A DNA stretch of 64,000 nt from Rhodoferax sp. (lineage in GTDB: Bacteria; Pseudomonadota; Gammaproteobacteria; Burkholderiales; Burkholderiaceae_C): NCBI RefSeq assembly GCF_039922535.1, contig NZ_JBDTEM010000147.1:523-64522 (forward strand), in the 5' to 3' direction. The notes below the pieces were generated by a model. It was not told where the DNA came from. It was given only the letters and a program-made list of their open reading frames with translations, and searched no databases. The position numbers and the translations under genes are program-made. Below are positions 346 to 64,000 of the stretch, one piece after another (positions within the stretch are counted from its first letter, which is position 1; each line of letters opens with the position of its first letter).

Positions 346-409
346 TTACAAGCTTTTTAGGCCTCCAGCGCAATATTCACCTACGGTAGAAGCTACTTTT
401 TATATAGCA
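346..409 (+). repeat. Copy of dispersed bipartite palindromic repeat (box A TGCCTCCAGCGC...; box B GCTAY-N7-ATAGC)
   Basis: TTACAAGCTTTTTAGGCCTCCAGCGC...AGAAGCTACTTTTTATATAGCA aligns without gaps to the copy at 14664-14727. Confidence 0.8.
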
Positions 410-610
410 AATACAGACGGCAGATCCGGAACCGTCACGGGGTAGTCTGGGCCGCCCACCGCAGCAAAACCGGGTGCAAGGTCAACCGCAACCGGCTTTC
501 CGGCGTTAAAAACCTATCCCCAAGGGATTTGTGGGGTCTGGAAACACCTTTTTCACAAACCCGCATACAGTTTCTTCATCTGCCAACACGGCAACCTACA
601 GCCAAACACC

Positions 611-1228
611 ATGAACACACCTACCGACTCCGTTTCAAAGCCCCGCCTGCACCCCATGGTCATCGCCGCCTGCTCGGCCGTGGTGCTGGTCTGCGCCGTG
701 GGTACGGCGGCCATCATGGGCTGGATTCCCACCTCCACGGCCCGCAACACGGAGACCAGCAGCTTGGCGCAACCGGCGCCAGTAACCGCTCCGGTTGAAG
801 CACCCGTCAAGGCCCCCGTAAAGGCCCCACAAATGGCGGCAGCGCCCGTGCACAACACCACCCACACCGAGCCACGCCCAGTGGCTGCCATTTGCAGCAA
901 TTGCGGCGTGGTGGAATCTACCCGTGAAATCACCAACGCCGCCAAGGGCAGCGGTGTGGGTGCCGTTGGTGGCGCGGTGGTAGGTGGCGTACTGGGCCAC
1001 CAGGTCGGCGGTGGCCGGGGCCGCGACGTGGCGACCGTGCTGGGAGCCCTGGGCGGCGCCTTTGCCGGTAACCATATCGAAGGCCAAGTGAAGGCCACGC
1101 ACAGCTATGAAATCACTGTGCGCCTGGACGACGGTTCCACCCGCACCCTGCAACAGTCCGAGCAGCCCGGCTGGCAAGCAGGTGACCGGGTGAAGATCGT
1201 CAACGGCGCACTGCGCTCCATCGGCTAA
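611..1228 (+). CDS. Glycine-zipper 2TM domain outer-membrane protein (SlyB/Pcp-like)
   Basis: N-terminal TM segment, Pro/Ala linker, CxxCGVVES motif, GAVGGAVVGGVLGHQVGGGRGR glycine zipper, C-terminal YEITVRLDDG...GDRVKI. Confidence 0.85.
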   Translation: MNTPTDSVSKPRLHPMVIAACSAVVLVCAVGTAAIMGWIPTSTARNTETSSLAQPAPVTAPVEAPVKAPVKAPQMAAAPVHNTTHTEPRPVAAICSNCGVVESTREITNAAKGSGVGAVGGAVVGGVLGHQVGGGRGRDVATVLGALGGAFAGNHIEGQVKATHSYEITVRLDDGSTRTLQQSEQPGWQAGDRVKIVNGALRSIG

Positions 1229-1242
1229 TTTGCCGCATTTCT

Positions 1243-61338: not shown

Positions 61339-61379
61339 GGGGGGTTGGCGAAAGAAGCGAAGCTCTGCAGACTGGGGGT

Positions 61380-62858
61380 TTACCTAGGAAGGTCGCTAAA
61401 ACCCATCAGGAACTCATCCACGGCACGGGCAGCCTGGCGGCCTTCGCGGATCGCCCAGACGACCAGCGACTGGCCCCGGCGGATGTCGCCCGCGGCAAAC
61501 ACCTTGGGCACATTGGTGGCGTAGCCGCCGCTGAACTCGGTGTGCGCCTTGGCGTTGCCACGGGCATCTTTCTCGATGCCGAAGGCATCCAGCACGTTGG
61601 CCACAGGGCTGACGAAACCCATGGCCAGCAGCACCAGGTCGGCCTTCATGACGACTTCGGTGCCGGGGATTTCGACCAGCTTGCCGTCTTTGAACTCGAC
61701 GCGCACGGTCTTCAGGCCGGTAACCTTGCCTTTTTCTCCGATGAATTCCTTGGTGGAAATGGCGAATTCGCGCTCGCAGCCTTCCACGTGGCTGGAGCTG
61801 GTGCGCAGCTTGATCGGCCAGTAAGGCCAGGTCATGGGGCGGTTTTCTTCCTCCGGGGGCTGGGGCATCACCTCGAACTGGGTCACGCTGGTCGCGCCGT
61901 GGCGGTTGCTGGTGCCCACGCAGTCGCTGCCGGTGTCGCCACCACCAATCACGATGACGCTCTTGCCATCGGCGCGCAACTGGGCCTTGACCTTGTCACC
62001 CGCGTTGACCTTGTTTTGCTGGGGCAGGAATTCCATCGCGAAATGGATGCCGTCCAGCTCGCGGCCCGGCACAGGCAGGTCGCGCGATTGCTCGGCACCG
62101 CCGGTGAGGATGACCGCGTCAAAGTCTTTTTGCAGCTGCTCGGGGGTGATGGTTTCCTTGGCCCAGTTGGTGACCTTGGAGCCCTTGCCCAGCGGGTCTT
62201 TGGCCGCGCCCACCATCACGCCGGTGCGGAAGGTCACACCCTCGGCCTGCATCTGTTCGACACGGCGGTCGATGTGGCTCTTTTCCATCTTGAAGTCGGG
62301 GATGCCGTAGCGCAGCAGCCCGCCGATGCGGTCGTTCTTTTCGAACAGCGTCACGTCATGGCCCACGCGCGCCAGTTGCTGGGCGGCTGCCAGGCCGGCA
62401 GGGCCGGAGCCGACCACGGCCACTTTTTTGCCGGTCTTGTGCTTGGCGACGCGCGGCTGGACCCAGCCCTCGTCCCACGCGCGGTTGATGATGGCGTGCT
62501 CGATGGACTTGATGCCCACCGGCAGGTCGTTCACGTTCAGCGTGCAGGCCGCCTCGCAGGGTGCGGGGCAGATGCGGCCGGTGAACTCGGGGAAGTTGTT
62601 GGTGCTGTGCAGCACCGCGATGGCGTTCTGCCAGTCGCCGCGGTAGACCAGATCGTTGAAGTCCGGAATGATGTTGTTGACCGGGCAACCGTTGTTGCAG
62701 AACGGAATGCCGCAGTCCATGCAGCGCGCGCCCTGGATCTTGGCCTGTGCATCGTCGAGACCGACGACGAACTCTTTGTAGTGCTTGACGCGCTCGGCGG
62801 CGGGCTTGTAGCCCTCTTCGAGCCGCCCGTATTCCATGAAGCCTGTGACTTTACCCAT
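61380..62858 (-). CDS. gltD: Glutamate synthase small subunit
   Basis: [31 protein letters not shown] and [10 protein letters not shown]. Confidence 0.98.
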
Positions 62859-62889
62859 GATTCGTTCCTATTCTTTACTTCGCTTGGCC

Positions 62890-64000
62890 TTACTTGGCAG
62901 GCACGGCTTCATTTTTAATAGCTGCTTGTGCAGATGCTGCCTGCGCTAGAGCCACTTTTCGTGCATGCATTTCGCCCAGGGCACGTTGGTACTCCAGCGG
63001 GAACACCTTGACGAACTTGCCACGGGCTTCGGCCCAGGTGTCGAGCAGGTCACGGGCGCGCTTGCTACCGGTCCAGCGGTTGTGGTCTTCCAGCAGCTTC
63101 TTGAGCTGGGCTTCGTCGGTCTGGCCGTTGTGCCATTGGTCGGCCACGCCCAGGCCTTGTTGCTCGCCCGAGGGCAGCACGCGCTCCAGCGACACCATGG
63201 CCATGTTGCAGCGCTTGGCGAAATGGCCGTCTTCGTCGTACACGTAGGCGATACCGCCGCTCATGCCCGCCGCAAAGTTACGGCCGGTCTTGCCCAAAAT
63301 CAGCGCCGTGCCGCCGGTCATGTACTCGCAACCGTGGTCGCCCGTGCCTTCCACCACCGTGGTGGCACCCGACAGGCGCACTGCAAAGCGCTCGCCGGCC
63401 ACGCCGCTGAAGAAGGATTCGCCGCTGGTCGCGCCGTACATCACCGTGTTGCCGACGATGGTGTTCTGCGTAGCCACGCCACGGAAGTCGATGCTGGGGC
63501 GCACCACGATACGGCCACCGCTCAGGCCCTTGCCGGTGTAGTCGTTGGCATCGCCAATCAGGTACAGCGTGATGCCGTTGGCCAGGAAGGCGCCAAACGA
63601 CTGGCCGCCCGTGCCTTCGAGCTGGATGCGGATGGTGTCGTCCGGCAGGCCTTCGGGGCGCACCTTGGTCAGCGCACCCGAGAGCATGGCCCCCAGCGAA
63701 CGGTTGACGTTGCGCGCCACTTCCATGAACTTAACCTTTTCGCCGCGCAGGATGGCGGGCTGCGATTTCTCGATCAGCACGTTGTCCAGCGATTTTTCCA
63801 GGCCGTGCTCTTGGTTTTGCACGTGGTAGCGCGGCACATCGGCGGGCACATTGGGCTGGGCGAACAGACGGTTGAAGTCCAGGCCGCTGGCCTTCCAGTG
63901 GGCAATGCCCTTGCGGGTGTCCAGCAGGTCGGCACGGCCAATCAGGTCGTCGAACTTGCGGATGCCCAGCTGGGCCATGATCTGGCGCACTTCTTCGGCG
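62890..64000 (-). CDS. gltB: Glutamate synthase large subunit, C-terminal part (runs off the window end)
   Basis: [39 protein letters not shown] and [11 protein letters not shown]. Confidence 0.98.
62906..62959 (-). repeat. Repeat copy encoding the GltB C-terminal tail
   Basis: AAAAGTGGCTCTAGCGCAGGCAGCATCTGCACAAGCAGCTATTAAAAATGAAGC is 38/54 identical, ungapped, to 39310-39363 and encodes [18 protein letters not shown]. Confidence 0.75.

Follow-up and report, generated by a model that had tools for sequence, protein, structure and literature searches.

The DNA uptake sequences (DUS) of the Neisseriaceae and the uptake signal sequences (USS) of the Pasteurellaceae occur in hundreds to thousands of copies, equally often in both orientations and with fairly even spacing. 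Their intergenic copies form inverted-repeat hairpins after genes, without a transposase or a target duplication; their genic copies lie in tolerated reading frames and leave the length of the protein unchanged; and they come in lineage-specific dialects at orthologous positions. Dialects of the DUS were reportedly described by Frye et al. in 2013, and uptake signals are said to accumulate by molecular drive, as Findlay and Redfield (2009) and Maughan and Redfield (2010) reportedly argued. To our knowledge, sequence-preferring natural transformation is not known for the Comamonadaceae, and our search of the literature for uptake sequences in the Comamonadaceae found nothing. Here we describe a family of dispersed palindromic repeats that we found in a stretch of 64,000 nucleotides from Rhodoferax sp. 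(assembly GCF_039922535.1, contig NZ_JBDTEM010000147.1, positions 523 to 64,522; hereafter, the window) and that is like the DUS and USS in all of these respects. When we compare the systems, DNA uptake signal sequences appear to be the other known case of this combination of features. Our favoured explanation, which we think has about an even chance of being right, is that the family is a recognition signal whose copies are maintained at their sites and re-tuned there, that is inherited vertically, and that has a secondary role as a hairpin at the 3' ends of genes.

Pieces of this family have been seen before. A survey of spaced motifs from 2017 (PMC5217627) reported ATAGCT(N)22CAAAAG in Polaromonas naphthalenivorans, with 125 copies of which 81% are intergenic, and GCTTAT(N)5AAGCG in Acidovorax ebreus; both motifs were uncharacterised. 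The same survey found more motif pairs in Rhodoferax ferrireducens than in any other genome. ATAGCT is the invariant right half of what we call box B (see below) plus the first base of the stem, and GCTTAT-N5-AAGCG is exactly the B-type tip that we see in sister species and in other genera. The surveyed motifs are also placed as our copies are, near gene ends and between convergent genes. Given these matches, the motifs almost certainly belong to this family. The survey gives only pairs of pentamers and a guess that they function in termination, and does not give the full element, a comparison across species, the genic copies, or the dialects. So the family is known in pieces, yet it remains uncharacterised.

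The element has three modules and is 55-70 bp long. Box B, which is GCTAY-N7-RTAGC, is fused directly to a GC-rich hairpin (TGCCAGCGCAGG, a 5-nt loop, CCTGCGCTGG, and then GGC), after which comes a tail rich in T or in A. More generally, the hairpin has the form T-GC-N-AGCGC plus a 4-nt tip, a loop of 3-5 nt, the complement, and then the A/T tail. The genome-wide consensus is ATTGCTATTaAATTAATAGCTGCCAGCGCAGGTGcTACCTGCGCTAGAGGCCTATTTTaTTTAAAATTT. The initial annotation of the window described this anatomy correctly (box B, the hairpin, and the run of T or A) and also noted that the element occurs in both orientations. It described the N7 of box B as freely varying, but AAT is favoured there.

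We built a profile hidden Markov model (HMM) from the 13 copies in the initial annotation and used nhmmer to search the 4.78-Mb assembly that the window comes from (G000; other G numbers refer to the relatives that we compared). The search gave 1780 matches, which merge to 1090 loci. At E ≤ 0.01 there are 934 loci (1228 matches), and at E ≤ 1e-4 there are 812 loci, which we use as the main set. Neither of the decoys, one made by reversing the genome and the other by shuffling it locally, gave any match at E ≤ 0.01. All 13 of the original copies are members of the family, with E values from 6e-7 to 5e-12, and the original count of about 13 copies falls short by one or two weaker ones, at 40666-40719 and 48786-48839. 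The bare 10-mer CCTGCGCTGG is not enriched in the same genome (25 observed vs. 19.7 expected), while the full element is, so the signal resides in the whole unit. A scan of the window against Rfam found no family for the element; its sole match was a riboswitch, which we describe at the end. We also noticed about 154 box-B-like palindromes (GCTAY-N7-RTAGC) outside of the recognised loci, as compared to 4 matches to a stricter pattern in reversed sequence. Either these palindromes are copies that have diverged a great deal, or they form a second family with box B in common.

Among the genomes sampled, the family is confined to a part of the order. With a covariance model, we found it in all 15 of the sampled genomes from the same genus and in 5 of the 9 further genera sampled from that taxonomic family; the 16 other families that we sampled from the order gave no match. 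A scan of named genomes for exact patterns found it in Rhodoferax/Albidiferax, Polaromonas, Curvibacter, and Xylophilus.

Most copies lie between genes, and they are densest where genes converge. Among the 812 copies, 231 are in convergent gaps (the genome has 554 such gaps, or 42% occupancy), 335 are in tandem gaps (of which there are 2858), 65 are in divergent gaps (of which there are 560), and 129 have their midpoint inside a called gene. These numbers correspond to 3.3, 1.2, and 0.5 copies per kb of convergent, tandem, and divergent gap. The remark in the initial annotation that several copies lie between convergent genes was correct for the window (14664, 39310, 46226, and 51568; copies are named as in Table 1), and it describes the genome as well. 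In tandem gaps, the copies are a median of 12 nt past the upstream stop codon. Their orientation relative to the upstream gene is unbiased (166 same vs. 169 opposite), even for the T-tailed copies (82 vs. 81), and about 90 copies have a run of A in place of the run of T. The copies are singletons: there are 5 neighbouring pairs within 150 bp, vs. 19 expected at random, and the spacing of copies is more even than random (coefficient of variation of 0.80 vs. 0.95±0.04). Furthermore, the gene-internal copies are a median of 4.0 kb from the nearest intergenic copy, which is twice the 2.0 kb of randomly chosen positions in genes (n = 27, p = 4e-4).

The conserved boxes and the hairpin behave differently across these contexts. 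The median minimum free energy (MFE) of the hairpin is -17.1 kcal/mol in convergent gaps, -15.6 in tandem gaps, -13.7 in divergent gaps, and -13.3 in genes (p from 1.5e-4 to 1e-9). Identity at the conserved boxes, which we define as the 20 most conserved positions, is 0.94, 0.93, 0.93, and 0.90 for the same four contexts. Intact copies in the window fold strongly (z from -3.2 to -8.8), and the copies at 346 and 61175, with z of about 0, have nonetheless kept their boxes. We extracted cores for 806 copies, of which 722 are in register for an analysis of pairing. Stem covariation was absent for two alternative structures, with either 60 or 722 copies: the fraction of paired positions is as expected from the composition of the columns. 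We read these patterns as two layers, namely a sequence signal that would be independent of context and a hairpin that may be kept strong where a structure at the 3' end is useful. A simple scan for terminators flagged one window copy, the one at 43587, in the stretch that was scanned.

About 100 copies are in genes and in a reading frame free of stops. Within genes with strong coding signal, 61 of the 82 internal copies are in the two frames that are free of stop codons. In recJ, the copy encodes residues 254-272, which align without gaps to solved structures of RecJ, so that 0 residues are added. The copies in the genes for PurK and for an FAD oxidoreductase also have no inserted residues when compared to solved homologues (these alignments are ungapped or nearly so). 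The copy in recJ is made up of rare AT-rich codons (TTA, CTA, TTT, GTA) along with a few conservative replacements. The same segment of recJ in three other genera, of which two lack the family and one has it, uses GC-rich codons, and the motif is absent. Relatives without the family had 0 matches to the model, so codon composition is not the cause of the genic matches. For the three copies that we checked, these alignments indicate that gene-internal copies arose by recoding existing codons and not by insertion. Other in-frame copies are in the linker of MutL, in the C-terminal extension of the leucyl aminopeptidase PepA, and in an Ada/AlkA-like protein (C127:990-1044, C361:4344-4398, and C193:7871-7925). 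The copies at the tails of gltB and of the PepA gene, as well as the one in the MutL linker, could be additions of residues.

The family appears to be old. No two of the 806 cores are the same; on average they match the consensus at an identity of 0.72, and just 4 copies have a neighbour at 95% identity or more. We compared 21 copies from G000 (8 on two other contigs besides the window's 13) to orthologous sites in relatives at the species level. For 19 of these, we could map the site in one or more sister species, and the copy was there in nearly all of the comparisons. Conversely, every mappable copy that five sister genomes have in regions syntenic to the window is also in G000. Identity at third codon positions is about 73-80% in the sister species, so the shared sites predate the genus. 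Across 5-10 species, the roughly 20 loci that we compared gave no clean empty site. There were three absences: G004 lacks C190:10132, which G015 has; G015 lacks C190:18789; and G009 lacks the region around 61175. The borders of these absences are ragged and do not match the element, and they look like deletions. For every pair of boundaries that we tested, with k = 3-5, we found no target-site duplication; the best signal was at most 32 of 806 copies, with 15 expected. No parent element turned up, although among transposases we searched for the Y1 type only and made no systematic search for insertion sequences (IS). Judging from these comparisons of genomes, the family is probably chromosomally fixed, vertically inherited, and now immobile. 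The initial annotation had suggested a mobile family like the repetitive extragenic palindromes (REPs) or the miniature transposable elements with inverted repeats (MITEs). That idea fails most of the tests that we made: besides the lack of target-site duplications, of clean empty sites, and of identical copies, the genic copies that we checked are not insertions, and the transposase that mobilises REPs is found with another repeat in this genome (see below).

At fixed sites, the tip of the hairpin comes in two dialects. Exact matches to the A tip, GCGCAGG-N3-7-CCTGCGC, number 139 in G000, 97 in G012, 74 in G008, 63 in G009, and 51 in G011, vs. 1-3 in each of G004, G005, G007, and G015. Exact matches to the B tip, GCGCTTAT-N1-5-ATAAGCGC, number 0 in G000, 45 in G007, 40 in G005, 22 in G013, and 12 each in G004 and G015. 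The B tip is also found in full members of the family from other genera, and it is probably the older form. At 39310, where each of the 10 species that we compared has a copy in place, the tip is A-type in G008, G009, G011, and G012 and B-type in G004, G005, G007, G013, and G015. At 11 or 12 shared loci, among them 39310, 51568, 14664, 346, and up to eight more, the 5' arm in G000 is A-type while G004, G005, G007, G013, and G015 are B or B-like. The tip has not switched in the copies that overlap coding sequence at 7669, 8479, 58858, and 62906. Within G000, the 5' arm, which is on the side of box B, has CAGGT in 502 of 806 copies, and the 3' arm is graded (ATAAG in 31, ATATG in 140, ATCTG in 115, and ACCTG in 214). 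Orthologues in G009 hold the intermediates CTTGT and CTGGT. So the change in the tip at many fixed loci looks like a directional and largely stepwise change rather than new insertions.

How might a recognition signal be maintained and re-tuned in this way? A sequence-specific process that acts on the DNA itself would favour alleles that match the current motif. Candidates for the agent are selection for binding of a factor, biased gene conversion among the copies, or a transmission bias of the kind proposed for DNA uptake signals ("molecular drive"); we consider biased gene conversion and binding by a chromosome-wide factor to be as open as drive of the uptake type. If the preferred tip shifts, then hundreds of sites would follow, mostly by stepwise substitution, with the arm that adjoins box B changing first and the opposite arm catching up. 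Between gene ends, the hairpin may double as a two-way 3'-end hairpin, whether as a terminator or as a protector of the ends of mRNAs, and the hairpins between gene ends would be stronger because they are used there in this way. The initial annotation preferred a lineage-specific binding site to a simple terminator. That preference gains from the boxes being equal in all contexts, from the lack of covariation and of orientation bias, and from the dialects, but no binding protein was identified, and the hairpin is tuned to its context as a terminator would be. A more specific version is that the family serves as the signal for a process by which DNA is rewritten or favoured according to its sequence: either a composite uptake or recombination signal of the Comamonadaceae that accumulates by molecular drive, or the site of a chromosome-wide factor whose specificity shifts between species. 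We offer this version tentatively, and we doubt it more than we believe it.

Several observations weigh against a maintained recognition signal, or at least call for caution. Our analysis identified no factor that recognises the element. With three modules and 55-70 bp, the unit by far exceeds every known uptake or binding signal in length, and it is five times as long as the core of 9-12 bp in the DUS and USS. The half-sites hardly ever stand alone (13 of 424 are outside of full elements), which is a further difference from the DUS and USS. About 84% of the family's copies are intergenic, vs. 35-65% for the DUS and USS. Outside of the boxes, the intergenic copies diverge about as third codon positions do (identities of 0.61-0.84 vs. 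0.73-0.80), so constraint is confined to about 20 positions. The dialect is decoupled from relatedness: by about 60 flanking genes and by the transposase discussed below, G000 is at least as close to genomes of the B type as it is to other genomes of the A type. Also, the dialect groups were defined by the same feature of the tip that we then counted. The gene calls were crude and were made within this analysis (4482 genes, 88% coding), the gap-filling test of the distances from genic copies is small (n = 27), and three gene-internal copies (recJ, purK, and the FAD oxidoreductase) were checked against solved homologous structures. It is possible that the copies undergo ectopic gene conversion and have no function.

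A candidate for a receptor did not hold up. The only pilin of the ComP_DUS type in G000 is a PilE-like minor type IV pilin, encoded right after pilY1, that matches this Pfam family (PF16732) with 70 bits. We rejected this ComP-like pilin as a receptor that tracks the dialect. Of 41 genomes sampled from the order, 38 have a pilin of the ComP_DUS type, regardless of whether they have the family, and 0 of 14 controls do; such pilins are ubiquitous in the order. The identity of the pilin does not follow the dialect (0.71 to B-type genomes vs. 0.67 to an A-type genome). This lack of correlation with the family and with the dialect is another difference from the DUS and USS.

The main rival to a maintained signal, which we consider unlikely, is that an ancient REP- or MITE-like element was amplified in the ancestor of Rhodoferax, Polaromonas, and Curvibacter and is now immobile, decaying, homogenised by ectopic conversion, and without function. 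REPs, including the GTAG-tagged ones, and their combinations (the bacterial interspersed mosaic elements, or BIMEs, and the REP doublets known as REPINs) are short, GC-rich, imperfect palindromes that occur in the hundreds, after genes and in convergent gaps, and a single-copy, vertically inherited REP-associated tyrosine transposase (RAYT) is present in the genome (PMC3733652, PMC3116915). All of this resembles the family, as does the conserved (A/G)TAG just 5' of the stem. In the family, this tag is followed by C and then by the stem, and its first base is A in about 70% of copies and G in about 30%, so it resembles the GTAG tag of REPs (PMC3733652) but is not identical to it. (The survey of REPs by Di Nocera in 2013 did not include Comamonadaceae.) The copies' age, their divergence, their lack of stem covariation, and their occasional losses fit an ancient element, and so do local haplotypes: some combinations of tip and loop are common to 19-37 copies, and there are both T-tails and A-tails. 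On the other hand, genic copies that replace equal lengths of conserved coding sequence cannot result from insertion, and conversion requires homology that is absent from unrelated coding sequence. The uniform 5' arm, the graded 3' arm, and the stepwise intermediates argue against the replacement of whole elements, and linkage over long range among the tip, box B, and the tail is low. The strength of the hairpin also depends on context, and no target-site duplication and no parent element were found, although IS were not searched systematically. In occurring inside genes by recoding, in being singletons rather than doublets or clusters, in having no identical copies, in having an extra AT-rich box B, and in having a dialect that is independent of the RAYT, the family differs from REPs. 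If instead the family were a classical REP or REPIN population that is mobilised by this genome's own RAYT, then the RAYT should go with the family, and it does not. The initial annotation was right that the window has no transposase or RAYT gene, but the one RAYT-like gene of the genome is just beyond the window's end (Table 1). It is a Y1 transposase of 231 amino acids (Y1_Tnp, 41.6 bits; NF047646, 77 bits vs. a cut-off of 80), and it is single-copy and syntenic throughout the genus. In most species, one copy of the family sits between the stop codon of the RAYT and the repeat on its right-hand side, and ATAG lies 5' of the hairpin in both kinds of repeat. Nevertheless, in 11 of the 11 members of the genus with a clear RAYT, the gene is flanked not by copies of the family but by inverted AATAGGGGTCAGA..CCCC repeats. 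G019, which has 0 copies of the family, has a RAYT that is 64% identical, and more distant homologues are in G018 (49%) and G023 (40%), which also lack it. The RAYT protein follows the relatedness of the genomes, grouping G000 with genomes of the B dialect, and does not follow the dialect. With just 5 pairs of copies within 150 bp and zero identical copies as well, we rejected the RAYT as the mobiliser of the family, and we consider this explanation to be largely refuted and very improbable. The AATAGGGGTCAGA..CCCC repeats also occur as about 26 free doublets of about 95 nt, with 52 GGGGTCAGA sites in all (for example, C290:4193/4260, C316:3292/3359, and C415:22120/22187). Together with the RAYT, they likely form a separate system that is like REPIN-RAYT, and they are the likely partner of the RAYT.

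It also seems quite improbable to us that the copies are ordinary intrinsic (Rho-independent) terminators that are alike because of common constraints or because they descend from one terminator. Termination was also proposed in the 2017 survey (PMC5217627), and it would suit the placement shortly past stop codons, the occupancy of 42% of convergent gaps, and the hairpin followed by a run of T. The strongest hairpins are in convergent gaps, the copy at 43587 scores as a terminator on both strands, and there are compensatory changes at 51568. But terminators should have an orientation, and the T-tailed copies do not; about 90 copies have a run of A; and 65 copies are in divergent gaps, which contain promoters, with about 129 more inside genes. 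The boxes persist where the hairpin has been lost (346 and 61175), there is no covariation across the genome, and termination gives no reason for 20 positions of common sequence or for a concerted switch of dialect.

We considered three other kinds of repeats. The Rickettsia palindromic elements, which were reportedly described by Ogata et al. in 2000, are palindromic repeats that are read in frame within protein-coding genes, in stop-free frames only, as the family's genic copies are. Those insertions add about 30-50 residues to the protein, however, and the three copies that we checked add none. Correia elements (NEMIS), enterobacterial repetitive intergenic consensus (ERIC) sequences, and other MITEs are small dispersed elements with inverted repeats that can carry terminators, which is similar to the family. 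MITEs end in inverted repeats, are flanked by target-site duplications, are missing from empty sites in relatives, and have a parent IS, but we found none of these features for the family, although our search for IS was not systematic. Finally, the BRE repeat of Bordetella and other Betaproteobacteria (PMC3110155) is a different element: it is 90 bp, GC-rich, and tandem.

If the family is an uptake signal, it would be the first outside of the Neisseriaceae and the Pasteurellaceae, and it would have a composite architecture of 55-70 bp. If it is the site of a chromosome-wide factor, then shifts in the factor's specificity would drag hundreds of sites along, including codons of essential genes. 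If a maintained signal is the right reading, then a sequence-specific process would shape about 1% of the genome across a large group of Betaproteobacteria from freshwater and soil, with enough force to recode the conserved proteins RecJ and PurK, to provide start codons as well as signal peptides, and to change several bases between species at hundreds of loci. Studies of how signals across a genome co-evolve with what recognises them, which so far have drawn mainly on uptake sequences, would also gain a second independent system. The A-type and B-type tips in cultivable strains of Rhodoferax, Polaromonas, and Curvibacter provide a testable handle. The family is a marker for this group of bacteria, and it also misleads annotation, for instance through false starts of genes, tails that come from read-through, and terminators that are missed.

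Table 1. Copies of the repeat family in the window and other features with coordinates. Copies are named by their starts in the initial annotation; the extent of the nhmmer match is in parentheses if it differs.
Feature	Position	Strand	E value	Context	Remarks
346	341..409 (357-409)	-	4.4e-9	divergent intergenic gap	hairpin decayed, A-run tail type (CTAAAAAGCTTGTAA); RNA fold z +0.2, unfolded; orthologues in G004 and G007 with B-type tip
7669	7664..7732 (7680-7732)	-	7.6e-8	spans gene junction	encodes final ~18 residues of upstream gene; recJ start codon in box B (GCTATGAAAATTACAGC); retains B-type 5' arm GCGCTTAT; 75-89% identity in G004, G007, G015
8479	8479..8533	-	3.9e-8	over recJ codons 254-272 (KRLRAQAQPAGLAALFVAA)	length unchanged
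14664	14670..14727 (14675-14727)	-	7e-12	between convergent genes	intact 15-bp hairpin, -29.5 kcal/mol, z -4.4; tip of G004 orthologue B-like
25841	25841..25892	+	5.5e-8	tandem gap	
39310	39310..39364	-	4.9e-12	whole stop-to-stop gap of two convergent genes	
40666	40666..40719	-	2.4e-4	inside called gene	weak 14th copy; copy at orthologous site in G009, G002
43587	43587..43641	+	2.1e-11	after gene end	perfect 13-14 bp hairpin and T-run, fold z -5.5; present in G008, G009
46226	46226..46279	+	5.4e-11	between convergent genes	fold z -3.2; 'hybrid' tip GCGCAGG-CGGAATA-TGCGC
48786	48786..48839	+	0.19 (G000)		degenerate remnant, possible 15th copy; copy at orthologous place in G007 has E 4e-5
51568	51559..51611	+	1.9e-9	between convergent genes	20-bp perfect palindrome, -40.9 kcal/mol, z -8.8; orthologues in G002, G004, G007, G009, G015 keep the hairpin, with sequences that differ and are partly compensated
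52902	52902..52956	-	7.4e-9	hisD start codon (in box B) and first ~17 codons	79-96% identity in 5 species
58858	58857..58911	-	6.1e-7	start codon and signal peptide of MlaA/VacJ-type lipoprotein (MKNIARYATLTSAAGIFVLISGC)	in 5 species
61175	61175..61226	+	5.3e-9	long intergenic region	decayed hairpin, fold z +0.6; present in G002, G004, G015; region missing in G009 without clean empty site
62906	62906..62959	+	3.6e-9	translated as C-terminal tail of glutamate synthase large subunit (GltB)	86-91% identity in G002, G009, G015
RAYT-like gene	L001:1171-1866 = contig C147:68372-69067	-		3.9 kb past window end	adjoins gltB
ComP_DUS-type pilin	L095:1405-1893, contig C24	-		right after pilY1	

Three other features are of note. 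From 14735 to 35000 in the window, there is a single copy (25841) in 20 kb, vs. about one per 5 kb elsewhere, and this block may have been acquired more recently. In G015, the convergent gap that is orthologous to 51539-51629 is 751 bp instead of about 90 bp, and it contains small open reading frames that resemble a toxin-antitoxin pair and that are inserted beside the copy of the family. Last, there is a xanthine riboswitch aptamer (NMT1 RNA, RF03054) at 6612-6676 on the minus strand, with a score of 47.3 bits vs. a gathering threshold of 36, and it lies upstream of the gene at 5435-6442 on the same strand.

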